Shown piece after piece: positions 24,622 to 38,927 of a DNA stretch of 64,000 nucleotides. The stretch comes from Minisyncoccia bacterium (GTDB taxonomy: Bacteria; Patescibacteriota; Minisyncoccia; Phycocordibacterales; UBA9973): positions 30,934 through 94,933 of the forward strand of contig JBDHUP010000001.1 of NCBI GenBank assembly GCA_039809245.1, read 5' to 3'. The notes under the pieces are model-generated. The model was not told the origin of the DNA. It saw only the letters and a program-made list of their open reading frames with translations, and made no database searches. Numbering within the stretch: position 1 is the first letter of the stretch; every line of letters starts with the position of its first letter. The translations under genes were made by a program, and so were the position numbers.

Positions 24622-26523
24622 TTATTCAACAACTCTCTCGTTCCCGTATTGGAAATTCTGATCACTTGTAATTAAAGTAGTAATAGGACCTCTTGAACTC
24701 TTTACAACTGTATTAGTAAATGAATCTGTTCCTGAAAGGAAAACATCTTTCATAAGTTGTGGCACACTTCCAACTTGAGCAAGTGATGGTTTAAGAGCAA
24801 CCATAAATGAAACTTCTCGACTAGTCTCGAGTCCTGTATATGAGCGAACCGTTCCTATGTCCCACACTACTTCCCGAGTAGTGGCATTATATGCTACTTT
24901 CTCTATAGATCCAGGCTTAGGTCCTACCCAAGTCACATATATAGGAAGTATTGAACGAGCCTGAGCTTGGTTAACTGTATTAGCAGAATTTGAAAGTGTC
25001 CATGTTATTGTATACGTTGTTTCCGATTCAGCTTTTGGAGGCAAAGGACCAGAAGTAAAGCTAGCAGAAGAAGCGATCTGGAAATCTGAAACTATCTTCA
25101 CTATCTTTTTAGCAAAGTTATTTACATCACTAAATGTTGAACCAACAGAAGGCTGATTGCCTTTTATACTTACATCTAGTTCCACTTGTGGATCCTTTAT
25201 AGTATTTGAAGCTCCTATGAGTGACTTCGGTTTGAAATTAAATGAGACAACTCCACTAGCCCCAGGCTCGATACTTCCAAGTTCAGGAATAGTATTCTTG
25301 TCCCAAATTATTCTATTGTTTGATGAATCATAAAATCCTTCACGTGGATTGACTGTACTCTTATCAAATGCATTTCCAGACATATTCACGATAATTTGCG
25401 CATCGGTAATACGAGTTGAAAGATTATTAACCCAAGAAATCTCAGAACTTACAGATTCTCCTCCTGAAGCTGTGTATGTAGGTAGGTTCTGTCCGTTTAC
25501 TAATATGCGTGCTTCTAAGAACGGCTTAGTTATAGTCACAGTTTGAAGGAGTGAAGTATAGACAACATTCACCACAGATAAATCTGTTGGACTGGTAGTC
25601 CCAGCGTAGACGTGGAATACCTGCTGGTCTCCATCCTGGCCTATAAGGCGACCTTTAACTGTAATCTGCACAGGGTTAGCTTGAGTCAGAGAAGCCAAAC
25701 TCCAAACACTCTGACCGATAGTTGGCTGGGGTGTAGCACTGTCGAAAACGAAGTTAGGAGGATAAGTAACTTGTAGCATTGTTGTCTCCTGAGGAAGGCT
25801 TGTGTTTAGAGTTGCATTAATAGTGAATGAGACAAGCTGGTTAGATGTAGCTTGATCTGGAGCATCAATACGAAGAGAAAGTGGAGCAGAACTTATCGTG
25901 ACTTGGTATTCTTTATCTTTAGTAAAGATGGCATTTGATCCCTCTGGGTGATATTGCAGACTAATCTTTACATTGCGGACCGACTTCTCATCCCCAAAGA
26001 GGCTAACTTTTACATTACGAGTGATGCTCTGACCTTTCTTTATAGTTCCTATAGTCTCACGAGGTAGCCTAATTACGTCACTAGCATTATCACTAGCGCC
26101 ACGTGGGTACTCGATTAATAAGTCAGCAAGTTCGAGGTCAGCATTATTACGATTTGTTATCTCAATTTGTAGTGGTAGTTCATCGCCTCCTTTTGTAAAC
26201 GCATTCCCGAGCACAGTAATGTCGATATTATCACTCGATACTGATATACCTCCAGTGGTATACATATAGAAAGCAAACCCAATGGCTCCGATGAAAAAGA
26301 TAACTGATATTACAAAGAATTTCTTGAAGAATGATGTTTTCGGCTTTTTGATTGTGGTATTCATTGACGAGTTTTCTGACTTAACATCTTCTTTCCATTC
26401 ATTGGCGACTTTGAAGTTTTGTGGATGGAGGACTCCCTCGTGTCGACGATCGACACCTGTATCTTTCGGATCATAGAGACGACGCTTAATGTCCTCAATT
26501 TTATTGTGATCTTCTTCTAACAT
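24622..26523 (-). CDS. Hypothetical membrane-anchored, beta-rich surface protein
   Basis: 633 aa. A TM helix (FFKKFFVISVIFFIGAIGFAFYMY) lies after a charged N-terminus. The long Ser/Thr/Asn-rich ectodomain is predicted all-beta. Confidence 0.45.
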   Translation of the reverse strand: MLEEDHNKIEDIKRRLYDPKDTGVDRRHEGVLHPQNFKVANEWKEDVKSENSSMNTTIKKPKTSFFKKFFVISVIFFIGAIGFAFYMYTTGGISVSSDNIDITVLGNAFTKGGDELPLQIEITNRNNADLELADLLIEYPRGASDNASDVIRLPRETIGTIKKGQSITRNVKVSLFGDEKSVRNVKISLQYHPEGSNAIFTKDKEYQVTISSAPLSLRIDAPDQATSNQLVSFTINATLNTSLPQETTMLQVTYPPNFVFDSATPQPTIGQSVWSLASLTQANPVQITVKGRLIGQDGDQQVFHVYAGTTSPTDLSVVNVVYTSLLQTVTITKPFLEARILVNGQNLPTYTASGGESVSSEISWVNNLSTRITDAQIIVNMSGNAFDKSTVNPREGFYDSSNNRIIWDKNTIPELGSIEPGASGVVSFNFKPKSLIGASNTIKDPQVELDVSIKGNQPSVGSTFSDVNNFAKKIVKIVSDFQIASSASFTSGPLPPKAESETTYTITWTLSNSANTVNQAQARSILPIYVTWVGPKPGSIEKVAYNATTREVVWDIGTVRSYTGLETSREVSFMVALKPSLAQVGSVPQLMKDVFLSGTDSFTNTVVKSSRGPITTLITSDQNFQYGNERVVE

Positions 26524-26549: not shown

Positions 26550-27134
26550 CTAAAGGTGGCTCTCGTTTAAGGCTTTATTTATATGGGCTATTATTGACTG
26601 TCGCTCTTTTAAAAGGTTATCTGTTTCGATTGTAGAAAATTCAGCTTCTAAGTATCGTGCAAGTGCTCCTGACTCACCTATGTAACCGAGGGTATTCATA
26701 ATGCGTAGGACTAGGTGAAGCTCTAGCGCTGTGCGAGTCTCGTTTGATGTATTCGGATCATCAAGTAAATATAGCGCTTGGATAAAGTCGTTGAAAATCT
26801 TCTCGTGGGCTTCTTCCCCATCGCATAACCTTTCAATAAGTTTACTTATGCGAGCAATTAACAAAAGAGATTGTCTATCAGAACGTGCGTAAGGAAATGA
26901 ATTGGCAGTTGTCGCCGATGTTACCCTCCATATATCCCTACCGCGGACTAGGTCAACTTGTGCATAAGCAAAATCTTGTAAAGCAAAACGAAGTTTAGAT
27001 TTATTCAGTCGTACTCCTTGAGCAACTGCTCGCACCAAACCCATCTCTTTCGTATAAATTAGAAAAAGTTTATTCGCCTCGCCCATATTACGCGAACTCG
27101 TTATAAATCCATTTGTGTGATAAATGTGGTGCAT
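26550..27134 (-). CDS. recO: DNA repair protein RecO (probable)
   Basis: 194 aa. The N-terminal OB-fold pattern GFITSSRNMGEANKLFLIYTKEMGLVRAVAQGVRLNKSKL matches the RecO N-terminus. Helical C-terminal half. No zinc finger. Confidence 0.45.
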   Translation of the reverse strand: MHHIYHTNGFITSSRNMGEANKLFLIYTKEMGLVRAVAQGVRLNKSKLRFALQDFAYAQVDLVRGRDIWRVTSATTANSFPYARSDRQSLLLIARISKLIERLCDGEEAHEKIFNDFIQALYLLDDPNTSNETRTALELHLVLRIMNTLGYIGESGALARYLEAEFSTIETDNLLKERQSIIAHINKALNESHL

Positions 27135-27775
27135 TAAATTTCTTCTTCTTTTCCTATTTCTAAAACTTTAAATTCAATTCCGTTTTTGGGCAACACAATT
27201 GAAGGTACTCGGTGTGCGGTGCCAAAGTTTGGTGCAAGCATCCCATCATGGACTGGGAAACATAAACGTGGTTTTAACTCTAATGCATATTTGATAGGTG
27301 TTTTAATATTTGTCCAAGGACCTGCTACTGGCAGAGCAAGAATATCCACCTTCTTACCAGGATTTGTAAAAGCATCACCTGGGTAAAATAAATCTTTCCC
27401 AATAAAGTATCCAGTATTTTGCACTTGCCCTATTTCTTCATAAATCTCTTCATGTTTATCTCCATGGGCTTCAAAGTACACAGATTCGAGCTCTGTAGAC
27501 TGCCCATCCTCTAGTAACTTGAAAGGTATGCCATGCTCTCCAAGTAACTTACCTACTGCAGAATTTGTAATAATGTCTAGATTAGAATTATTAGAAATAA
27601 TTTTTTTAAGTGAATCAATATGGAAATGATCAGGATGCTCGTGTGTAATCACTACTATATCTATGCCAGTGTATACACTTTGCTCATCGATAGTATAACT
27701 ACCTGGATCAGTCATTATCCTTTTTCCATCTATTTCTATTACTAAACAACAGTGCCCAAGTTTCTTTATTTTCAT
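27134..27775 (-). CDS. MBL-fold metallo-hydrolase
   Basis: 213 aa. VVITHEHPDHF (HxHxDH). Confidence 0.6.
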   Translation of the reverse strand: MKIKKLGHCCLVIEIDGKRIMTDPGSYTIDEQSVYTGIDIVVITHEHPDHFHIDSLKKIISNNSNLDIITNSAVGKLLGEHGIPFKLLEDGQSTELESVYFEAHGDKHEEIYEEIGQVQNTGYFIGKDLFYPGDAFTNPGKKVDILALPVAGPWTNIKTPIKYALELKPRLCFPVHDGMLAPNFGTAHRVPSIVLPKNGIEFKVLEIGKEEEI

Positions 27776-27782
27776 AAAATTC

Positions 27783-28505
27783 TTAATTTAAGTTATTTTT
27801 CTCAGAATTGAAATCAGAGAAAGCTTTCTCCATTATTTCTCTAGTATTAAAGTCAAAAGCGTCAACTATCTCGAATATCTTGGCATTATAATTCGCAACT
27901 ATATCATCTTGAATTTTCATGTTTGTGTTTATATTTACACTTTTATCGTTTGCCGTTACTGAAAATTGATTTTTCTGACTTAAGCTAAATAATTCTTGCA
28001 AATCATGAAGTTGCTTATCTTTTGAAATGAATAATTCTTCCAGTGAATCATCAAATAGTTTCTTTATTCCTTGTAATTTTTGCAATTCAACGATTGTTAA
28101 CGTGGTGTTTTTTTCTAATTCTTCAATTTGTTTATTGAATTCGTCATGCTTTTTCTGCCAAACATCATACGGCTTAGTATCAAGCATTATTTTTGCTGCT
28201 TCTAATTGTGTATCAAGGGTTTTTATTGGAGTATCAAATAATTCATCTATCGATACTTTTTGGCTTTTATCAGATTTAGATAACTCTCTTGTTGTTATAT
28301 CCATTAATTCCTTTATTTTTGTTGTACATAAAAAGGCCTCGGAATCAATCTGGTCTTGATATCCTTTGTACTTATCAACTATTGCAACTTCACTAAAAAA
28401 ACTGCTTATAATATTCTTATAAAGATAAGCTTTTTCATTAATTTTTTCCTTAAATTTATTAAAATTGTCTTCGTTATTTTCTTGAGATAAGTTTAATCCT
28501 TCCAT
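27783..28505 (-). CDS. Hypothetical coiled-coil protein
   Basis: 240 aa, Glu/Lys-rich, heptad-like periodicity, no enzymatic motif. Confidence 0.35.
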   Translation of the reverse strand: MEGLNLSQENNEDNFNKFKEKINEKAYLYKNIISSFFSEVAIVDKYKGYQDQIDSEAFLCTTKIKELMDITTRELSKSDKSQKVSIDELFDTPIKTLDTQLEAAKIMLDTKPYDVWQKKHDEFNKQIEELEKNTTLTIVELQKLQGIKKLFDDSLEELFISKDKQLHDLQELFSLSQKNQFSVTANDKSVNINTNMKIQDDIVANYNAKIFEIVDAFDFNTREIMEKAFSDFNSEKNNLN

Positions 28506-28509
28506 ATAT

Positions 28510-28971
28510 CTATTTTACCATATTTTTGGAATCAAATTCATCTAAGTGCTTCTGTGCCTGCTCTAGAGTTTTTATTCGACATTCTTTTTTAAATCCAAAT
28601 GTATTACGAGCTTCTTCAAAAGTGGCCCACTTATATTCAAGGATTTCACCCTCTTGAATTTTAACCGTCTTATCTTTTACAATTCCAATAAAGTATTTAC
28701 ATACCCTATCTATTATTTTTCCATCAAGATTAAACTCATAACGTTCATCAATAAGTGGAACGTCTAACAATTCTATATTAGTAATTCCAGTCTCTTCTTT
28801 TAATTCACGCATAGCGATTAAAAGAGGATCTGTTTCACCTTCTTCTCGTTTTCCTTTAGGGTAACTCCAATTATTGAATTCCTTATTTTGAAAAAGTATA
28901 AGGAATTTATATTCACTTTCTTCCTTGAAAACTGTTACTACTCCATAAGCTATTTGTTCAATACGAGACAT
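28510..28971 (-). CDS. NUDIX hydrolase
   Basis: 153 aa. Nudix box GKREEGETDPLLIAMRELKEETGI (GX5EX7REUXEEXGU). The start lies 2 nt after the ileS stop. Confidence 0.75.
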   Translation of the reverse strand: MSRIEQIAYGVVTVFKEESEYKFLILFQNKEFNNWSYPKGKREEGETDPLLIAMRELKEETGITNIELLDVPLIDERYEFNLDGKIIDRVCKYFIGIVKDKTVKIQEGEILEYKWATFEEARNTFGFKKECRIKTLEQAQKHLDEFDSKNMVK

Positions 28972-28973
28972 AT

Positions 28974-31900
28974 TTATAGAATATTTATTCTGAATACTAA
29001 TTCATCGATTTTTACTTCAGTGCCTTTATTCTCTGAGAAGTTTAAATCTTTAGCTCCGACGACTTTCAATAAGTCAGGTTTGTATTTATTTATCAGATCC
29101 TCTCCTTCTTTGCTTGTCTCTATCTTAAGTTCAATTACATCACTAGGTGTAAGCTTAGCCTCTTTGCGCATATCTTGAATAGCGCGAACCAGTTCACGAT
29201 AATTACCTTCTTCTTTTAATTCTGGAGTTATAACTGTATCAAATACTATGTTTTCATCTTTACCTTTCTCTATACTCTTTACATTAAGCTCATCTTTTAT
29301 AAGTGCTTGATATTCAGCACTTGGAACTTCTGGGACATATAGAGTTGAGAGTGGTTGTCGGACAGGAATAACATTCTTCTTGCGAAGCATATTCCCTGCG
29401 CTACAATAGTCACGAACAATTTGCATCTCTTTAAATACTTCTTCTTTTACTTTTCCCGCTTCTGGCCATTCTGCTAAATGCACACTCTCTTTATCAGAAT
29501 CATTTTTAAGTTTCTGCCAGATATCCTCTGAGGCAAATGGCGCAAAAGGAGCCATAACTTTCACTAAAGTTTTCAACACATAGTAGAGGGTACGCTTTGC
29601 ATCTTCATCACCATCTTTGAGTCTATCTCTTGAGCGACGAACATACCAAGTCGAAAGCTCGTCGATGAACTCGCGCATCTCGCGAACTGGTTCTAAAAGT
29701 TTATAGCTATCCAAGTTCTTAGTTGTGTTTGCTAAGAGCTTGCTTAGTCGAGCGACAATCCACTGATCGAGAATATTGTCTGAGGTTTTATATTTCTCAC
29801 TTTCTAGATTCTTGTCTCTATATAGTTCGTAGAACGCGAGGACATTGTAAAGCAAGTTAAAGACTTGCTGTTGAAGTAGAACTACAGTCTTCTCGTCGAA
29901 GTTCTTGGATTCACCTGGCTGATTCACTGAGTACATCCATAAGCGTAGAGTATCCACTCCATACTTCTCTATCATAAGCCATGGATCGACAATATTACCC
30001 AAAGATTTAGACATCTTCTTCCCTTTCTCATCTAAGATATGACCTAGGCAAATAACGTTCTTATAGGCTTTACCGCGCCCTGTGAGCACACCTACAGCAT
30101 GAAGTGTATAGAACCAACCTCGAGTCTGATCTATCGCTTCTGATATATAGTCTGCTGGGAATCCTTTGCCATCTACCCATTTCTTATTCTCAAATGGATA
30201 GTGATCTTGCGCGAATGGCATCGCACCTGAGTCGAACCATACATCCATAACTTCTTTGACTCTTGTCATCTCCCCACCATCTTTATCTATCAACTTCACT
30301 TGGTCGATGAATGGCTTATGGAAGTCGAGTTCATAATCATCATTATGAGGAACTGGCACGAAAGGTAACTCTCGAACTTCTGCATTATCGAAACGTTTGA
30401 AGTCTGGGACGAACACATGAGTATTCGCAACTTGATAATTCTTATTCTCTGGGGTAAACAATCCTGAGTTCACAAAGCATAGCCAAGCAGGACCACCATG
30501 AGTAATGATTAATATATTCTTGTCTTTATATTTTTCTTCTAGTTCATATAGTGCTTCGGCGGTACGTCTTTGCACTTCTTTCAGTGATTCACCGCCACCG
30601 ATCTTCTGGTTGAACCAATCAGAACCTACATTTGTATACACATACTCATGATAAGCAGTCCAATTCTTACCATCGAAATCTCCAGGGTCTACTTCTTGGA
30701 ATCTTTTATCATAGATAATACTTTCTTTAGACAAGCCTAAAGTTTCCGCCACGATCTCGGCTGTCTCTTTCGTGCGAGTAAATGGTGAAGATACGATCAT
30801 ATCTATCTTTTTCTTTTTTAGTTCTTTCTCTGTTTTTTTCTTGACTTCGCTCTCACCTTCTTTAGTAAGGTTATCTGTTGCTTGATTCTTATAGCTAACA
30901 AGCTCTTTCAAGTTGCCTTCTGTTCCACCATGACGCATTACAAAATATTTGTTGCCAGAATTCTTAGTCTTTTCTTTCAGTTCATCGAGACTTCCTATCA
31001 CTTCGAATTCCCCGTCGGCTTTCTGCCAGATAGGAAGTGGGGTCCCCCAGTAACGTTCACGAGATATCGCCCAGTCTTTAATATCTTTAAGCCATTCACC
31101 AAAGCGCCCTTCACGTATATGTGATGGTTCCCAGTTTATAGTTTTATTCTCATTTATGAGTTGCTTCTTTATCTTCTCATCTGACATTCTAATATACCAA
31201 GAATCGCGCGCGTAGTAGATAAGTGGAGTCTTACATCGCCAACAGTGTGGGTATGAGTGTTCGTATTTCTCTTTCTTGAAAAGCAATCCTCTGTGTGCAA
31301 GGTCTTTAATAATATCTATAGCGACTTCTTCATCTTTTACAAATCGTCCTTCTAGAAAACCTGTACCTTTCACAAAGTGACCTGAATCATCAACAGTGTG
31401 CATTTTTGGCAATCCTAGCTTTGTTCCAAGCTCGAAGTCATCCTGACCGTACATGACAGCAGTATGTACAACACCAGTACCATCAGTCGTAGTCACGAAA
31501 TCTGCTGGGTAAACTTTGAATGCTTTACTTACATCCTCACCTTTTTTCTCTAGTGAATCTTTCAGGTATGGGTAAAGTGGTTCGTATTCTAAGCCAACTA
31601 ATCCACTACCTTTAACATCTTCAATATATTCTTGAACCCCTCCAAATGAGCTTTCCATTCTTTCCCTAGCACAAATCAAGTATTCTTTACCAACTTTAAC
31701 TTTTACATAATCAATATCTTTCCCCACAGCAAGAGCAACGTTTCCAGGTAATGTCCATGGAGTTGTCGTCCAAGCTAGGATGTAAGTGTTATCTTGTCCT
31801 ACAACTTTAAACTTTCCAGTTACCGATAAATCTTTATCATCTTGATATCCTTGTGCAAGTTCGTGCGATGAAAGAGCCGTACCACAGCGAGGACACCAAG

Positions 31901-32441
31901 GCACAACTTTGTAATCTTTATACAAAAGCTTCTTCTCTTCGACTTTCTTTAAGACGTTCCAGACAGATTCTATATAGTCATTATGATAAGTGACATATGG
32001 ATTCTCTTGATCAACCCAGTAGCCAATTCGCTTTGTAAACTTATTCCAGATATCTAGATACTCCCAGACACTTTCTTTACACTCTTTATTAAACTTCGCG
32101 ACACCGTACTCCTCAATCGCTTTCTTGGAATCGAGTCCGAGCTTCTTCTCGACTTGGAGTTCAACTGGAAGTCCATGAGTATCCCAGCCACCCTTGCGAC
32201 GTACATGGTATCCACGCATAGTCTTGTACCTTGGTATCGCATCTTTAAAAGCGCGAGCCTCTAAGTGATGAATACCTGGCTTACCATTAGCAGTCGGAGG
32301 GCCTTCGTAGAATACGAATTCACCCTCTGTCGATTTCTTCTCTAGTGATTTATTAAAAATACCCTGCTCTCGCCAAAATTCAAGTACAGCCTCTTCGCGA
32401 AGAGCTGCTACAGATTTATTATTTTTTTCAGTGTTATCCAT
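28974..32441 (-). CDS. ileS: Isoleucyl-tRNA synthetase (type 2) with an internal histidine-phosphatase (PGM/PhoE/CobC-like) domain insertion
   Basis: 1155 aa. PPTANGKPGIHH is the HIGH motif. CP1 editing motif TTTPWTLPGN. WAISRERYWGTPLP. DVWFDSG. KMSKS. A module spanning aa about 497-700 sits between WGTPLP and WFDSG. It carries FVMRHGGTEGN (the RHG catalytic His motif), SSPFTRTKETAEIVAETLGL, and IITHGGPAW (second His). Confidence 0.9.
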   Translation of the reverse strand: MDNTEKNNKSVAALREEAVLEFWREQGIFNKSLEKKSTEGEFVFYEGPPTANGKPGIHHLEARAFKDAIPRYKTMRGYHVRRKGGWDTHGLPVELQVEKKLGLDSKKAIEEYGVAKFNKECKESVWEYLDIWNKFTKRIGYWVDQENPYVTYHNDYIESVWNVLKKVEEKKLLYKDYKVVPWCPRCGTALSSHELAQGYQDDKDLSVTGKFKVVGQDNTYILAWTTTPWTLPGNVALAVGKDIDYVKVKVGKEYLICARERMESSFGGVQEYIEDVKGSGLVGLEYEPLYPYLKDSLEKKGEDVSKAFKVYPADFVTTTDGTGVVHTAVMYGQDDFELGTKLGLPKMHTVDDSGHFVKGTGFLEGRFVKDEEVAIDIIKDLAHRGLLFKKEKYEHSYPHCWRCKTPLIYYARDSWYIRMSDEKIKKQLINENKTINWEPSHIREGRFGEWLKDIKDWAISRERYWGTPLPIWQKADGEFEVIGSLDELKEKTKNSGNKYFVMRHGGTEGNLKELVSYKNQATDNLTKEGESEVKKKTEKELKKKKIDMIVSSPFTRTKETAEIVAETLGLSKESIIYDKRFQEVDPGDFDGKNWTAYHEYVYTNVGSDWFNQKIGGGESLKEVQRRTAEALYELEEKYKDKNILIITHGGPAWLCFVNSGLFTPENKNYQVANTHVFVPDFKRFDNAEVRELPFVPVPHNDDYELDFHKPFIDQVKLIDKDGGEMTRVKEVMDVWFDSGAMPFAQDHYPFENKKWVDGKGFPADYISEAIDQTRGWFYTLHAVGVLTGRGKAYKNVICLGHILDEKGKKMSKSLGNIVDPWLMIEKYGVDTLRLWMYSVNQPGESKNFDEKTVVLLQQQVFNLLYNVLAFYELYRDKNLESEKYKTSDNILDQWIVARLSKLLANTTKNLDSYKLLEPVREMREFIDELSTWYVRRSRDRLKDGDEDAKRTLYYVLKTLVKVMAPFAPFASEDIWQKLKNDSDKESVHLAEWPEAGKVKEEVFKEMQIVRDYCSAGNMLRKKNVIPVRQPLSTLYVPEVPSAEYQALIKDELNVKSIEKGKDENIVFDTVITPELKEEGNYRELVRAIQDMRKEAKLTPSDVIELKIETSKEGEDLINKYKPDLLKVVGAKDLNFSENKGTEVKIDELVFRINIL

Positions 32442-32550
32442 TTTGTTTTAATGAAGCAAATTATTTTATGAAAAAATGTCTGGCCGAACAGAGTGAGGAG
32501 ATCCGAGGACTTTTTTCAGAATATAATTTGCGAAATGACTAATAAAAAAC

Positions 32551-32600
32551 TCGTCCACGTACAACAATAAAATTGTTATACAAGGACGAGTTTCTCGTGG
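32551..32600 (-). terminator. Rho-independent terminator (minus strand) between argS and ileS
   Basis: Minus-strand reading CTCGTCCTTGTATAACAATTTTATTGTTGTACGTGGACGAG followed by TTTTTTATT. 7-bp GC-rich stem base. Confidence 0.45.
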
Positions 32601-32729
32601 TACCACCTTGCTTACTTCTCATTTAATAGGGCTCTACTCTCCCGAAGGATTTCTTCCCCAAGCTCTGGGGTGATAGCCCCTTCAACGCTTATATATTAAG
32701 AATACAAGCAAAATGCTAATTTTGCAACC

Positions 32730-34424
32730 TTACATTTTCCCTGGAGTCTTAATTCCCAAAAGATAGAGACCATTTTTCATAGTCTGGTGGAATGCTTCCA
32801 CAAGTGCGATACGATAATTCGCATATGGATCACTCTTATTTATTATCTGTGTATTACCATAGAAAGTATTGAACGCACTCGCGAGCTCAGTAAGATATGT
32901 AGCGATATGATGTGGCTCAAGTTGTGTATATGATCGCTCTACCACTTCTCCGAATTGATATAACACTTTCTCTAGGTTTGTAACTTCATTCGGTATATCT
33001 TTATAAGCTGCGCAGATACCTTCTGCTTCGACCTTTTTCAAAATAGAATTGGCACGCACTGCAGTATACTGAAGATACGGACCAGAGTCCCCTTCAAATG
33101 AAATAGATTTCTCAAAATCATAAACAATATCTGATCCGAGTGAAGAGCGAAGTATAGAGTACTTCAATGCTGACACTCCGACAACTTTTGCTATCTCATC
33201 TTTCTCTTCTATTGATAACTCTCTATCAGACACCTTTTCATAGACTACATCCATAGAATCTTTCAAGAGTGACTCTCCTGTAACCACATTACCTTTTCTT
33301 GATGACATCTTACCAGAAGCTAGGCGCATCATGCCGTGAGTAATGTGCTTCATACGTGATTCGTAATCTGGATGGATAAGAGAGACAGCTTTCTGAACTA
33401 CTTTCATATATTCGCCTTGTTCTATAGCTGTAGTAATGATAGATATATCTGGATTCTCTTTCTCAAACTTTGTCACAGTGAGACCTACCTCTTTCGTCTC
33501 ATAAAGTGGAATACCTAGTGATGTGATAAAAACTCGAGTATGGAGCTTCGGGTCATAATTCTCAGCATGGAAGACTATCGCACCTTCTGACTCCTCAAAA
33601 ACTTTCCCAATATTCTCTCTGACAATTTTCTCTCCAATTGGCGCCATTTCACTCTCGAAGAAATAGTAGTCGAACTTTGTTCCGAGTGTTTTATATATTT
33701 CTTCAAATGCATCTAGAGTGACTTTCCTTCCCCAATCATATATCTTATTTATCTTTTCATCACTTCTGTCATAGACTTTCTTATTTATTTCATTTATTTC
33801 TTCTTTCCACTTTGGATCATTATCATACGCATCGGAACCTCGCGCATATTGCTCGCCAATCCAAAGCGCACTTTTGTTCTCATATGGTTCCACTGAATCC
33901 AGAATCCCCCAGATAGCTTTCGCCACATGTGGACCCACATCACCTTGATAGTTTGCTCTTACTGTCTTTGCACCTGAGAACTCTACAATGCGAGAAATAG
34001 ATTCACCAATAGCATTACTCATAAGGTGACCAATGTGAAAAGGCTTGAAAGGGTTCGGCTGAGTGTACTCCACCATTACCTTTTTATCTTTTAATATTTC
34101 ATTCTTCCCCCAATTATCTTTCTGTTTTAAAATATCTTTCACGCTATCTACAAAGAAATCATGATGTAGATAGAAGTTTATAAACCCAGCACCTGCAACT
34201 TCTACTTTCTGCATGCCTTTTATATTCTCTTTTTCAATTTCAGATTTTATCTTCTCTGCAAGTTCTTTAGGGTTTGTACTTAATTGCTTCGCATAAGCCA
34301 TGGCAACATTTGTAGAATAATCACCCATTTTCAAATCTGCTGGATGCTCAAGAATAACACTACCTGCTTCTATGCCGAGATTCTTCAGTGCACTTTTTAT
34401 GTGTTGTATAAGTTTTTCTTTCAT
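32730..34424 (-). CDS. argS: Arginyl-tRNA synthetase
   Basis: 564 aa. PNPFKPFHIGHLMSNAIG is the HIGH motif. MSSRKG is the KMSK-like motif. DALR anticodon-binding C-terminus. Confidence 0.9.
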   Translation of the reverse strand: MKEKLIQHIKSALKNLGIEAGSVILEHPADLKMGDYSTNVAMAYAKQLSTNPKELAEKIKSEIEKENIKGMQKVEVAGAGFINFYLHHDFFVDSVKDILKQKDNWGKNEILKDKKVMVEYTQPNPFKPFHIGHLMSNAIGESISRIVEFSGAKTVRANYQGDVGPHVAKAIWGILDSVEPYENKSALWIGEQYARGSDAYDNDPKWKEEINEINKKVYDRSDEKINKIYDWGRKVTLDAFEEIYKTLGTKFDYYFFESEMAPIGEKIVRENIGKVFEESEGAIVFHAENYDPKLHTRVFITSLGIPLYETKEVGLTVTKFEKENPDISIITTAIEQGEYMKVVQKAVSLIHPDYESRMKHITHGMMRLASGKMSSRKGNVVTGESLLKDSMDVVYEKVSDRELSIEEKDEIAKVVGVSALKYSILRSSLGSDIVYDFEKSISFEGDSGPYLQYTAVRANSILKKVEAEGICAAYKDIPNEVTNLEKVLYQFGEVVERSYTQLEPHHIATYLTELASAFNTFYGNTQIINKSDPYANYRIALVEAFHQTMKNGLYLLGIKTPGKM

Positions 34425-35458: not shown

Positions 35459-36037
35459 TTAGATTTTTATTAATTCTCTTACTTTCTTTACTACTTGCTT
35501 AGGAGAAAGATTTGTATTGTCTATTTCAATATTATTCTTAACTGGTGCTGGTGTAGACCAGTCTTTCTTTTCTTTTAGAATTCTTTTCATTTCATTTGGA
35601 TCTGAAAGTTTTCTGAATTTTTTTCGTGACTTTCCTGATACACGTTTAATAAGCTCTGTATCACCAGCCTTCAAGTGAACAAAGTAAGCTCTACCTCCTT
35701 CTTTCTCCACATATGATTCTACTTTTTTCACAAACTTAGGATCAGTTAACCCTGTCATAGATACATATTCTGCAGAATAAGCATGGGTAGCAACTGTATT
35801 TAAATGACCTTTTGCAATTTCTTCAAATACATCCAATCTTAAACGCTCGACAAGGCGATTTAATTCAAGTGTTCCCCTTTTGAATAACTCTACCCCTAAA
35901 TCATAAGTATGGTGATTATGGAATAGTTTATATCCAGTCTGTTTCTGAAATTCTTTCGCTACAGTGTACTTACCCACAGCAAATGGTCCGTAAAATATAA
36001 CGACATTAAATTTTGGTTTTTTAATTACTTTTTTCAT
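35459..36037 (-). CDS. P-loop NTPase/kinase-like protein, possibly a nucleoside or nucleotide kinase
   Basis: 192 aa. Walker A GPFAVGKYT about 10 residues from the N-terminus, as in small kinases. The basic C-terminus and the substrate are unknown. Overlaps the upstream Nudix gene by 17 nt. Confidence 0.45.
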   Translation of the reverse strand: MKKVIKKPKFNVVIFYGPFAVGKYTVAKEFQKQTGYKLFHNHHTYDLGVELFKRGTLELNRLVERLRLDVFEEIAKGHLNTVATHAYSAEYVSMTGLTDPKFVKKVESYVEKEGGRAYFVHLKAGDTELIKRVSGKSRKKFRKLSDPNEMKRILKEKKDWSTPAPVKNNIEIDNTNLSPKQVVKKVRELIKI

Positions 36038-36575
36038 TTACTTTTAAAATAGCTTTTTTATATAAGTCTATAAACTCACTTGAAATAGTTTTTCTTATAA
36101 AATTTCTCTTTTCATCTTCAGATAAATTTTCTAACTGTTTTATTGAGTAACTTTCAAAACCAAGAGCATTTTCATCTTCAAGTTTTAAATCTTTTAAATC
36201 GCCAGAAAATAAGTAAGCAAATATTGTAGTGAATCTATTATTAATAAGTTTCGTAACTTCATCAAAAGATTTAGACCTTATCTTTTCGATAGGAATTAAT
36301 TTGCCAGATACATCAATACCAGTTTCTTCTAAAGATTCACGCTCTGCGGTTTTTTCATAAGTATCATTAGCAGAATCAACATGCCCTCCAACAGTTAGAT
36401 CTAGGAGGCCTGGATATGTTTCTTTATCTAAGCCACGTTTTTGAAAAATAATTTCATTATTTTTACTCACAAAAATCACATGTGCTTCCCTATGTAACAA
36501 GCCATCTTTGTGTATTATAGATCTTTCTTCTTCCCCTATTACCTCATCTTCCTCATTTACTATTGGAATCTTCAT
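36021..36575 (-). CDS. NUDIX hydrolase
   Basis: 184 aa. Nudix box GGHVDSANDTYEKTAERESLEETGI. Confidence 0.7.
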   Translation of the reverse strand: MKIPIVNEEDEVIGEEERSIIHKDGLLHREAHVIFVSKNNEIIFQKRGLDKETYPGLLDLTVGGHVDSANDTYEKTAERESLEETGIDVSGKLIPIEKIRSKSFDEVTKLINNRFTTIFAYLFSGDLKDLKLEDENALGFESYSIKQLENLSEDEKRNFIRKTISSEFIDLYKKAILKVNEKSN

Positions 36576-38035: not shown

Positions 38036-38461
38036 TTACTTTATACTATCATAATAATTGTTACCAGTTTTATAAGATTTAATTGCAAGCCCTGTCTGGA
38101 TAAACACAGGGTCAGGTAGGTCATCAAGATTGTACCACTGCCAGCTTTCTAATTTCTCAGGTTCAAGGACTTGTGGTTCACCACTCTCCCATTCTGCAAG
38201 TAGAACTATATTCACATAGTGCTTTGGAGCATAGTGAAAAATATTTCCCACATGCAAGAATTTAATATTCTTTATTTTTATTCCCGCCTCTTCCATCACT
38301 TCTCTTTTAGCACAATCTTCAAATGATTCCATATACTCCAAATGCCCTCCAGGGAATGCATATTCTCCTATTCCATGTGAGACTTTCCTTTGACCCATTA
38401 AGACTTTTCCATCTTTTAGAATCATTACCCCCATTCCAACTTTTGGTCTTTTGTCTTCCAT
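38036..38461 (-). CDS. NUDIX hydrolase
   Basis: 141 aa. Nudix box GGHLEYMESFEDCAKREVMEEAGI. Confidence 0.7.
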   Translation of the reverse strand: MEDKRPKVGMGVMILKDGKVLMGQRKVSHGIGEYAFPGGHLEYMESFEDCAKREVMEEAGIKIKNIKFLHVGNIFHYAPKHYVNIVLLAEWESGEPQVLEPEKLESWQWYNLDDLPDPVFIQTGLAIKSYKTGNNYYDSIK

Positions 38462-38462
38462 A

Positions 38463-38927
38463 TTATGAGCTTAATTCTTTTAAGGCTTCTTCGGCATAGA
38501 ATTTAATATTTGGAACTAAATCCATAGTTTCTAAATCTTCCTTAGTGCACCATTTCAGTTCGACGCCTTTTTCATGATCTAGGACTGAATCTGAGACTTC
38601 ATCTGTATCACAAGTAGCAAAGTAAACAAACACTACATGCTCATGAGTTGGTCCAGTTCTGTGACGACCTAAATACTGAGGAGGCATAAGTATTTGAAAA
38701 TCTTTTTCGCCAAAATTAGGAATTTCTTTCCCGACAAGCTTTACATCAAGGCCTACTTCTTCTTTCACTTCTCGATAAGCAGCTTCTATTGGATCTTCAT
38801 CGAGTTCTATATGTCCACCAACCGAACACCAAATATTGTATTTATCATGCATACGAAGAAGGACTTTATTCTTATGAACAATAAAGACTTCTACTGTAAA
38901 ATCGATTTTCTCGTGTATATGTGGCAT
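38463..38927 (-). CDS. NUDIX hydrolase
   Basis: 154 aa. Nudix box GGHIELDEDPIEAAYREVKEEVGL. Confidence 0.7.
   Translation of the reverse strand: MPHIHEKIDFTVEVFIVHKNKVLLRMHDKYNIWCSVGGHIELDEDPIEAAYREVKEEVGLDVKLVGKEIPNFGEKDFQILMPPQYLGRHRTGPTHEHVVFVYFATCDTDEVSDSVLDHEKGVELKWCTKEDLETMDLVPNIKFYAEEALKELSS

Follow-up and report, generated by a model that had tools for sequence, protein, structure and literature searches.

Aminoacyl-tRNA synthetases rank among the most thoroughly studied enzymes, and the chemistry known from them comprises amino acid activation, transfer to tRNA and editing. Among the closest described relatives of the protein considered here are the bacterial type-2 isoleucyl-tRNA synthetases (IleRS2), for which several structures are available (8c8u, 8c8v and 8c8w from Priestia megaterium, and 1ILE from Thermus thermophilus). 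In a 64,000-nucleotide stretch of the genome of a Minisyncoccia bacterium (Patescibacteriota; contig JBDHUP010000001.1; hereinafter the window), the gene ileS encodes an IleRS that shares the domain order of these enzymes. However, where the solved IleRS2 structures have a loop of ~11 residues, the window IleRS contains a ~215-residue phosphatase of the histidine phosphatase superfamily nested within its catalytic core.

The inserted domain can be compared with small branch-1 histidine phosphatases such as PhoE/YhfR (1ebb, 1h2e), the phosphoserine phosphatase PspA (4ij5), the alpha-ribazole phosphatase CobC (3hjg, 6nru), GpgP Rv2419c (4pz9) and HFP (9mmh), with which it shares the same ~200-residue fold and the catalytic set formed by the RHG motif, Asn, Arg, Glu and His, at an identity of 17-25%. 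Unlike these enzymes, which function as stand-alone components of metabolic pathways, it displays clade-specific residues and is either nested in a synthetase or operon-coupled to one. Bacterial IleRS proteins with an extra enzymatic domain have a precedent in the ileS_w_GNAT family (NF040702); there the additional domain belongs to a different family, GNAT, and the window protein, with 324.2 bits against a cut-off of 1999, is not a member. A CobC-like phosphatase is also fused to a nucleic-acid enzyme in the RNase H/acid phosphatase proteins of the Rv2228c type (NF005567). Among the NCBIfam models this one ranks second for the insert (E 2e-22, below the cut-off), but the Rv2228c type is an end-to-end fusion to RNase H, in contrast to the nested arrangement seen here.

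At the level of function, the E. coli CCA-adding enzyme carries an HD-domain phosphatase. Likewise, small alarmone hydrolases reverse the pyrophosphorylation of the tRNA CCA end by toxSAS toxins (10.1101/2021.04.30.441581). Both place a phosphohydrolase at the tRNA acceptor end; they offer a functional analogy only, as their HD fold is unrelated to that of the insert.

We found no description of a phosphatase-bearing synthetase in 7.7 million PMC papers and bioRxiv, a scope outside of which most papers from subscription journals lie, and the two IleRS papers most pertinent here, PMC10485003 and a 2026 survey that annotated 96,219 IleRS sequences, do not mention a phosphatase insert. This agrees with an initial annotation of the locus, made from the sequence alone, which was aware of no described synthetase with a histidine phosphatase. 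In public databases the architecture is present under generic names, where it has gone unremarked. While synthetases with extra domains are already known, a catalytic-type phosphatase nested in the synthetase core, with a split-gene counterpart and recurrence at multiple sites, is new.

A histidine phosphatase domain nested in the IleRS core

The alignment with structures in the PDB places the inserted segment (site A) at aa 483-697 (30351..30995, minus strand) in the CP3 region, between the WxISR and LHKP/DxWFDS blocks. Its ~215 residues stand in place of the ~11-residue loop formed by residues 468-478 of the 8c8w chain, a net gain of ~205 residues. The initial annotation had correctly noticed the enlarged spacing between the flanking blocks; its figure of 100-120 aa for ordinary IleRS2 enzymes is, however, too high, the actual spacing being ~73 aa (8c8w) as against a median of 268 aa in 67 insert-bearing homologs. 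The boundaries that it proposed (30344-30955) are one base out of frame, with aa 496-699 corresponding to 30345..30956.

The core of the domain (aa 500-679; 30405..30944, minus strand) is recovered by the Pfam His_Phos_1 model (PF00300) with an E-value of 1.2e-29 and 103.8 bits in the whole protein, and with 3.4e-31 and 108.9 bits when the insert alone is searched, far beyond the gathering threshold of 21.7 bits and in line with the E-value well below 1e-5 that had been predicted from inspection of the sequence. The three signature peptides quoted in the initial annotation are all present in the translation: FVMRHGGTEGN at aa 500-510, SSPFTRTKETAEIVAETLGL at aa 551-570 and ILIITHGGPAWLCF at aa 643-656. 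Conservation analysis delineates an active site made up of the RHG motif with R503, H504, the predicted nucleophile, and G505 (30927..30935), a second phosphate-binding arginine, R556 (30774..30776), E583, the predicted general acid (30693..30695), and the second catalytic histidine, H648 (30498..30500; all on the minus strand). These six residues are conserved in 100% of a set of 67 species, comprising full-length homologs from species-representative genomes, and N510 in 96%. The glutamate at position 583 is universal in the embedded forms, with an aspartate at this position in the stand-alone clade adjacent to ileS discussed below. Across ~190 embedded copies, the nucleophile histidine, both arginines, the general acid and the second histidine are invariant.

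It is conceivable that the domain is instead a structural or oligomerization module, or a phosphate-binding appendage that contacts the tRNA backbone, whose chemistry is irrelevant. Synthetases often gain non-catalytic tRNA-binding appendages, and the insert does evolve faster than the Rossmann core, with a mean pairwise identity of 0.40 as compared to 0.55-0.61 (the C-terminal domains show 0.36-0.47). Nevertheless, the invariance of the active-site residues is typical of an active enzyme, and the embedded domains, with a median net charge of -4, are mildly acidic. We hence consider a purely non-catalytic role to be very improbable, and the conserved residues indicate that the phosphatase is likely to be catalytically competent.

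In the AlphaFold2 model of the full-length protein, built on 46 homologs (mean predicted local distance difference test score, pLDDT, 90.3; predicted TM-score 0.83), the insert forms a well-predicted α/β domain with block means of ~85-96, and when modeled alone it reaches a pLDDT of 88.3. A variable, predicted-disordered loop at aa 666-681 (30399..30446, minus strand; pLDDT <50) leads back into the synthetase; the mean pairwise identity in the tail of the insert is 24.5%. Foldseek searches with the full-length model superpose the synthetase core on 8c8v (TM-score 0.82) and 1ile (TM-score 0.92, 3.0 Å root-mean-square deviation), with the scores normalized to the target; a structural comparison of this kind had been proposed in the initial annotation. 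Searches with the domain model alone retrieve PspA, mycobacterial GpgP, the riboflavin-pathway HFP, PhoE and CobC with TM-scores of 0.62-0.75, the probability being 1.00 for PspA, GpgP, PhoE and CobC.

No substrate-specific NCBIfam model reaches its cut-off with the insert alone: the scores (in bits, against the respective cut-offs) are 92.1/162.9 for CobC (TIGR03162), 79.9/326 for the RNase H/acid phosphatase model NF005567, 65.7/225 for dPGM_arch, 62.3/350 for PspA (NF045917), 53.3/261 for GpmB (NF002901) and 33.8/74.5 for SixA (TIGR00249), the dPGM models in this subfamily test being NF038349 and TIGR01258. Because the specific models all fall below their cut-offs, a substrate cannot be assigned by homology; nor can it be assigned by fold, with the structural neighbors spanning many substrates.

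We also considered whether the architecture might stem from a chimeric assembly, a pseudogene masked by frameshifts or a mis-called open reading frame (ORF), as some public copies of ileS are broken into 2-4 ORFs (loci L001, L002 and L003), with the pieces annotated separately as 'PhoE' and 'isoleucyl-tRNA synthetase'. However, these split copies come from error-prone assemblies; in L002 the EF-Tu gene is split too, a pattern typical of uncorrected long-read assemblies. In the window the ORF is open throughout, the GC composition is flat across the insert, and an independent 8.2-kb assembly encodes a 1155-aa protein identical at 1152 of 1154 positions (99.8%). Together with the presence of the architecture in at least 80 genomes (see below) and the confident structural model, this refutes an artefactual origin, for which we see practically no probability left. 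An insert matching no phosphatase family, comparably long segments in ordinary IleRS2 enzymes and an assembly chimera had been named at the outset as observations that would speak against a domain insertion, and none of these was encountered; the PF00300 match, the model and the independent assembly instead bear out an in-frame insertion rather than a fusion artefact or frameshift. The insert is a genuine branch-1 histidine phosphatase domain inside a complete type-2 IleRS, and the models depict a single polypeptide with two predicted activities, those of the synthetase and of an autonomously folded phosphatase with an intact active site.

The host synthetase

The ileS gene (28974..32441, minus strand) is an uninterrupted ORF of 1155 codons, and its original identification as a type-2 IleRS is upheld by the NCBIfam model TIGR00392, which the whole protein matches at the equivalog level (891.5 bits against a cut-off of 621.4); the models for the valyl (ValRS), leucyl and methionyl (MetRS) enzymes all score under their own cut-offs. 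Pfam recovers tRNA-synt_1 (E 1.4e-117), Anticodon_1 and DUF5915 along with His_Phos_1. In sequence searches against the PDB the closest solved enzyme is the IleRS2 of Priestia megaterium (8c8w, E 6e-242), with aa 9-482 and 698-1080 of the query aligning to residues 7-467 and 479-870 of the chain, respectively.

The part N-terminal to the insert (aa 1-482; 30996..32441, minus strand) comprises the first Rossmann half, the CP1 editing domain and CP2, and extends to the WAISRERYWGTPLP block (aa 457-470) and a β-hairpin. The C-terminal part (aa 698-1155; 28977..30350, minus strand), as delineated by the 8c8w alignment, the motif positions and Pfam, contains LDFHKPFID, DVWFDSG (aa 733-739), DQTRGWFY and KMSKS (aa 809-813), followed by the stem-contact fold, the anticodon-binding domain and the type-2 C-terminal domains. 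The CP1 region, with its WTTTPWTLP motif at aa 224-232, finds matches in 1wk8 and 1ue0, which are structures of isolated editing domains. Thus, the TTTPWTLP and KMSKS motifs are intact as first described, while the class I signature is not the canonical HIGH that had been assumed but reads G-I-H-H (aa 56-59; 32265..32276, minus strand). The form G/AXHH is a functional non-canonical variant of the HIGH motif in IleRS2 that confers mupirocin hyper-resistance (PMC10485003). GxHH prevails among the insert-bearing homologs, with HxGH also occurring. By its domains and motifs the gene codes for a complete, predicted editing-competent type-2 IleRS.

Phyletic distribution

The initial annotation had proposed that the same insertion be sought in Patescibacteria. 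We scanned a single genome for each GTDB species with a query spanning the junctions, which all the listed loci cover end to end. The nested architecture is present in at least 80 species-representative genomes, with identities of 36-60%. The genomes are labeled as Zambryskibacteria, Nomurabacteria, Liptonbacteria, Wolfebacteria, Paceibacterota and Parcubacteria, and some third-party assemblies carry the submitter label 'uncultured Candidatus Saccharibacteria'. Dozens of further fragments from Patescibacteria combine PF00133 and PF00300; short matches on long contigs represent one gene broken by frameshifts. An exhaustive HMMER search with the insert against 1.84 billion cluster representatives returned 729 proteins at E<=1e-10, and the best 150 of these comprise IleRS proteins of ~1130-1200 aa with the domain at ~490-710, fragments thereof, and stand-alone proteins of 185-210 aa. 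The full-length homologs used in our comparisons were drawn from both the genome loci and the cluster-representative search.

A split-gene counterpart adjacent to ileS

The closest stand-alone relatives (P0055, P0052, P0163 and P0076) show 33-42% identity to the insert, and their genes lie directly upstream of ileS genes that lack it (944-1015 aa). These loci share an argS...ileS-recO neighborhood, with the phosphatase gene situated between argS and ileS. In one further case (P0271) it is again upstream of ileS, separated from it by two genes. When metagenomes were scanned with this stand-alone clade, 80 loci were obtained: in 58 the phosphatase gene abuts the start of ileS, in 7 ileS lies within ~2 kb, 6 have the embedded form and 9 are not classifiable, most of them ending too soon. 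All the 58 adjacent pairs are separate, translationally coupled ORFs, with a stop-to-start distance mostly of -4 to +8 nt, and a phosphatase fused to the N-terminus of IleRS is found in none of them.

The split and embedded forms have in common the residues N497, Y499, T526, A561, G591 and G617, which are wanting in relatives from other contexts. The two forms constitute one distinct clade, and it is nearly certain that this clade is a recurrent partner of class Ia synthetases in Patescibacteria. They differ in net charge: as opposed to the mildly acidic embedded domains, most of the stand-alone ileS-adjacent proteins have charges of +16 to +34. This fits with a free protein needing an RNA affinity of its own, and would be a suggestive, if weak, sign of RNA binding by the stand-alone forms.

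Other relatives of the domain occur in different contexts. One (P0064) is found in islands where NT5C and a nucleoside hydrolase accompany His_Phos-HD pairs. Locus L090 (1298..6747) has two His_Phos-HD gene pairs, both translationally coupled, together with a GNAT protein, a nucleoside hydrolase and NT5C nucleotidases, and this island adjoins genes for an integrase and a ThsB_TIR protein; it is possibly a nucleotide-degrading island on a mobile or defense element. The gene of another relative (P0063) overlaps by 4 nt with the 3' end of a gene encoding a tRNA_SAD domain of the AlaRS/ThrRS/AlaX type; its loci (L094, 1..944, and L095, a TARA marine contig) have Nre_N/Nre_C genes nearby, which suggests that the contig is archaeal. 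The gene context of a third relative, from Clostridia (P0096), is uninformative.

Repeated internalization in class Ia synthetases

Mapping the insertion sites by means of Pfam matches and coordinates revealed one to three phosphatase copies per IleRS protein and four insertion points overall (positions in the numbering of the window IleRS). Site A (485/698) is used in the window protein and by the first copy in P0239; site A' (713/724), after the LHKP motif, in P0234 and P0251; site B (~754/762) in P0184, P0191 and P0234; and site C (~875/888), between the stem-contact fold and the anticodon-binding domain, in P0184, P0191 and P0239. The KMSKS region of the active site lies between sites B and C. 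Copies inside one protein share just 30-36% identity with each other, which implies that they are old and have each been maintained.

The domain has also entered ValRS. Two of the carriers (P0123 and P0257) were recognized as valyl-tRNA synthetases by NCBIfam, and a dedicated search raised the number of ValRS clusters with one to four copies of the domain to at least 14 (P0123, P0257, P0261-P0268, P0272, P0273, P0276 and P0329), their labels including Doudnabacteria and Gracilibacteria. The site in ValRS is mostly the loop homologous to site A, with some insertions after DxWFxS. P0123, in which four copies are present, was recovered by assembly from two separate samples. Its ORF (L096/L097, 366..3851) ends without KMSKS or the anticodon-binding region, and the next ORF begins 10 nt further on; it may represent a split or interrupted valS. 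The R-H-G-N-R-E-H set is kept in all copies, whether at sites A, A', B and C or in ValRS, with conservative G-to-A or N-to-A replacements in three of them. A rough, midpoint-rooted neighbor-joining tree of the IleRS core without bootstrap interleaves the split and embedded forms, hinting at more than one transition between the two. Taken together, the sequences point to internalization that was repeated and took place in parallel in IleRS and ValRS.

Fusions are seen with other translation-related proteins as well. One complete arginyl-tRNA synthetase (ArgRS; P0195) has the phosphatase fused to its C-terminus; given the gene order argS-phosphatase-ileS, this is consistent with stop-codon loss or read-through. 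Four clusters of TsaC/YrdC, an enzyme of the t6A pathway, carry the phosphatase domain too (P0148 and P0376-P0378). In Patescibacteria the commonest fusion partner of TsaC/YrdC is an Ogt-like domain (PF01035), and other partners are TruB, the 2H cyclic phosphodiesterase (PF07823/PF13563), Nudix, GNAT and 3-methyladenine glycosylase (PF02245) domains.

Such fusions bear on an explanation that does not invoke aminoacylation: the domain might be an uncoupled housekeeping phosphatase, acting on an ordinary metabolite or nucleotide phosphomonoester, that is carried by ileS and valS. In these tiny genomes it is a neighbor of ileS, and the joining of small enzymes to translation genes that are essential and highly expressed would be tolerated or of slight benefit, with the adjacent gene serving as the DNA source for local insertions. 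The closest relatives by sequence and fold act on small molecules, and a related stand-alone clade resides in the His_Phos-HD-NT5C-nucleoside hydrolase islands. The motley domains fused to TsaC point in the same direction, and the read-through fusion to ArgRS is what mere adjacency predicts. However, this account has to contend with the observation that co-expression was already afforded by the operon, so that fusion adds only proximity. Moreover, the domain entered IleRS internally at no fewer than four independent points, ValRS acquired it in parallel, and the easy N-terminal fusion occurs in 0 of the 58 adjacent pairs. Nor does it sit well with several old copies in one protein, each with its catalytic residues kept, or with the split and embedded forms being one distinct clade. 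On balance, we see an uncoupled housekeeping enzyme as an unlikely explanation that nonetheless deserves serious attention.

Gene neighborhood and leader RNA

The conserved gene order around ileS is argS-ileS-recO: among the 73 related loci analyzed, RecO is found downstream in 57 and ArgRS upstream in 45. In the window argS occupies 32730..34424 and recO, identified by the RecO_N and RecO_C domains, 26550..27134 (both minus strand). The start of a Nudix hydrolase gene (28510..28971, minus strand; PF00293, E 3.4e-15) lies 2 nt past the ileS stop, so that the adjacency reported in the initial annotation is real; yet it is not a conserved link, as no Nudix gene is found in the slot after ileS in the other loci, where HAD, HD or MBL proteins or nothing take its place. 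With the slot differing in other genomes and four Nudix genes within ~10 kb here, we rejected the Nudix protein as a conserved functional partner. These assorted small hydrolases behind ileS, as well as an argS-ileS-recO synteny that is kept without a functional link, are further features to be expected if the phosphatase were a housekeeping enzyme that merely resides at this locus.

The slot between ileS and recO in the window (27134..28971, minus strand) accommodates the Nudix gene, a 240-aa ORF without a Pfam match and an MBL-fold protein, and an equivalent variable slot of small hydrolases is present in L001-L003, L039, L047, L055 and L078. The four Nudix genes of the window (28510..28971, 36021..36575, 38036..38461 and 38463..38927, all on the minus strand) are interleaved with genes for dUTPase, thymidylate kinase, an AAA_18 kinase-like protein and a DUF1599 protein, an arrangement that makes the region a cluster for nucleotide house-cleaning; genes for SHMT, MetRS and a further class II synthetase are also found around them. 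Between recO and a class II synthetase lies a 633-aa ORF without a Pfam match (24622..26523, minus strand), whose syntenic genes in L001, L084 and L087 show only faint matches to CLIPPER/DUF7619. The window contains neither a toxin, kinase or RNA-repair gene near ileS nor, over its 64 kb, a second histidine phosphatase of the ileS-linked clade.

The 288-nt spacer between argS and ileS (32442..32729) harbors a T-box-like leader (32579..32694, minus strand), which matches RF00230 below threshold (45.7 bits, with the gathering score set at 93; E 4.7e-9 when 421 nt are searched) and was missed by a default Rfam scan at the gathering score. Its Stem I is a short hairpin, GGGGCUAUCACCCC, the loop of which displays the isoleucine codon AUC; this is followed by the core AAGGUGGUACCACG (core motif GGUGGUACCACG) and a terminator-like hairpin with a U-run. 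T-boxes of ileS with a short Stem I are known from Actinobacteria. The leader with its AUC loop lends indirect support to the predicted aminoacylation of tRNA(Ile). Upstream of ileS, the T-box core motif is found in 13 of the 73 loci with an insert as against 1 of 72 split-gene loci, and a permissive Rfam scan of 8 loci from split-gene genomes detected no T-box. The idea that the phosphatase and ileS are co-regulated by a T-box in the split genomes is not supported by these results.

Functional considerations

The architecture and the partnership between phosphatase and synthetase are close to certain. Co-expression was already ensured by the operon, and yet physical tethering appears to have been favored by selection time and again. 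We infer from this that the phosphatase works in cis, on something that is either bound at the aminoacylation site or delivered there. The recurrent internal insertions, together with the lack of the simpler N-terminal fusion, likewise indicate that proximity to the catalytic body matters. Some form of coupling between the phosphatase and the synthetase is therefore probably of functional importance, and the observations suggest a previously undescribed phosphatase step tied to tRNA charging.

Our preferred substrate, offered as a tentative guess, is a phosphorylated tRNA acceptor end. Both IleRS and ValRS hold A76 in the Rossmann fold, and the contrast between the mostly very basic free forms and the mildly acidic tethered ones is in keeping with this choice. 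Pyrophosphorylation of the CCA end by toxSAS is, moreover, an established and tRNA-specific modification, and acceptor-end phosphorylation as such exists and can be specific to particular tRNAs (10.1101/2021.04.30.441581, PMC11559606). The candidate substrate would be a 2'/3'-phosphate, or a pyrophosphate as added by toxSAS toxins, at A76. In such a reaction the phosphoryl group would be transferred to H504, the departing ribose oxygen would receive a proton from E583, and a water molecule would then free phosphate from the phospho-enzyme, restoring the free A76 ribose so that IleRS could charge the tRNA. This would amount to a 'pre-charging repair' beside synthesis and editing. In more general terms, the class Ia synthetases of Patescibacteria may have gained a third activity, namely the dephosphorylation of the tRNA acceptor end or of an active-site ligand prior to charging, in a repair or counter-toxin role; we put this forward as a possibility with a modest chance of being correct. 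In that case, strong selection would lie behind its independent internalization at different loops, in multiple copies and in IleRS as well as ValRS. Other molecules that the initial annotation had considered are Ap4A and the aminoacyl-adenylates. Neither is a phosphomonoester, and they are hence poor candidates, being unlike the substrates of this enzyme class.

Several observations weigh against the acceptor-end proposal. The nearest relatives by both sequence and structure (PspA, GpgP, HFP, PhoE and CobC) are small-molecule phosphatases. To our knowledge, no member of the superfamily acts on RNA ends. General tRNA repair leaves the restriction mainly to IleRS and ValRS unexplained, and two to four divergent, active-looking copies per synthetase are hard to rationalize with a single substrate. 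The basic charge of the stand-alone proteins has its exceptions. In addition, the maintenance of argS-ileS-recO without an obvious functional link makes adjacency weak evidence in this lineage, and the fusion of TsaC to many unrelated small enzymes indicates that fusion to translation genes is common in Patescibacteria.

Some of the same features can be accommodated by a role in product clearance, whereby the phosphatase would remove pyrophosphate, thus pulling activation forward, or AMP at the source during the ATP-costly editing by IleRS and ValRS. The fusion partners IleRS, ValRS, ArgRS and TsaC all form adenylates and release pyrophosphate or AMP, sites B and C flank the KMSKS region, and it is known that broad-specificity PhoE-like relatives hydrolyze AMP and that the branch-2 enzyme AppA cleaves phosphoanhydrides. 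However, a diffusible pyrophosphatase would serve every synthetase, leaving the restriction to IleRS and ValRS unaccounted for; hydrolysis of pyrophosphate is not known for the PhoE/CobC/PspA group, and dephosphorylation of AMP would waste purines in organisms that depend on salvage. The PROSITE pyrophosphatase motif is absent from the 64-kb window, which is a fraction of the genome, and we found nothing usable in the literature on the absence of pyrophosphatases from the candidate phyla radiation. We deem product clearance rather doubtful.

A counter-toxin function might also take the form of self-repair, in which the domain strips inhibitory phosphoryl groups placed near the ATP site of the synthetase by Ser/Thr kinase toxins of the HipA/HipT type, rendering IleRS and ValRS immune to such attack. 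Branch-1 protein phosphatases do exist (PGAM5, Sts-1 and SixA), the second Rossmann half receives the insertions on either side of KMSKS, and the enzyme already possesses another resistance-type trait in its GXHH motif. There is also a precedent in the HipA-family kinases that inactivate the class I synthetases GltX and TrpS by phosphorylation in the active-site region (PMC6581861, PMC8262856). Nevertheless, no kinase gene was found near ileS in the window, and a HipA-type toxin that targets IleRS or ValRS is not known. The best matches of the domain are, furthermore, not to protein-phosphatase subfamilies, SixA falling well short of its cut-off (33.8 bits against 74.5), and the strongly basic stand-alone forms would be left unexplained. 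Self-repair accordingly appears quite improbable to us.

Conclusions

In Patescibacteria, an apparently active and unrelated hydrolase has been built into the catalytic body of a synthetase and kept across a large bacterial radiation, with a split-gene form in sister lineages, several sites and copy numbers, and a parallel in ValRS. The sequence signature of this clade can be used to annotate hundreds of entries currently named 'class I tRNA ligase family protein' or 'histidine phosphatase family protein, partial'. The system is also cleanly testable whichever way the substrate falls, as the point mutation H504A should separate the synthetase and phosphatase activities. If the substrate is the tRNA end, this would add a new quality-control or anti-toxin layer to translation; if it is pyrophosphate, AMP or a metabolite, the system would illustrate how housekeeping chemistry becomes attached to essential machinery in ultra-small genomes.

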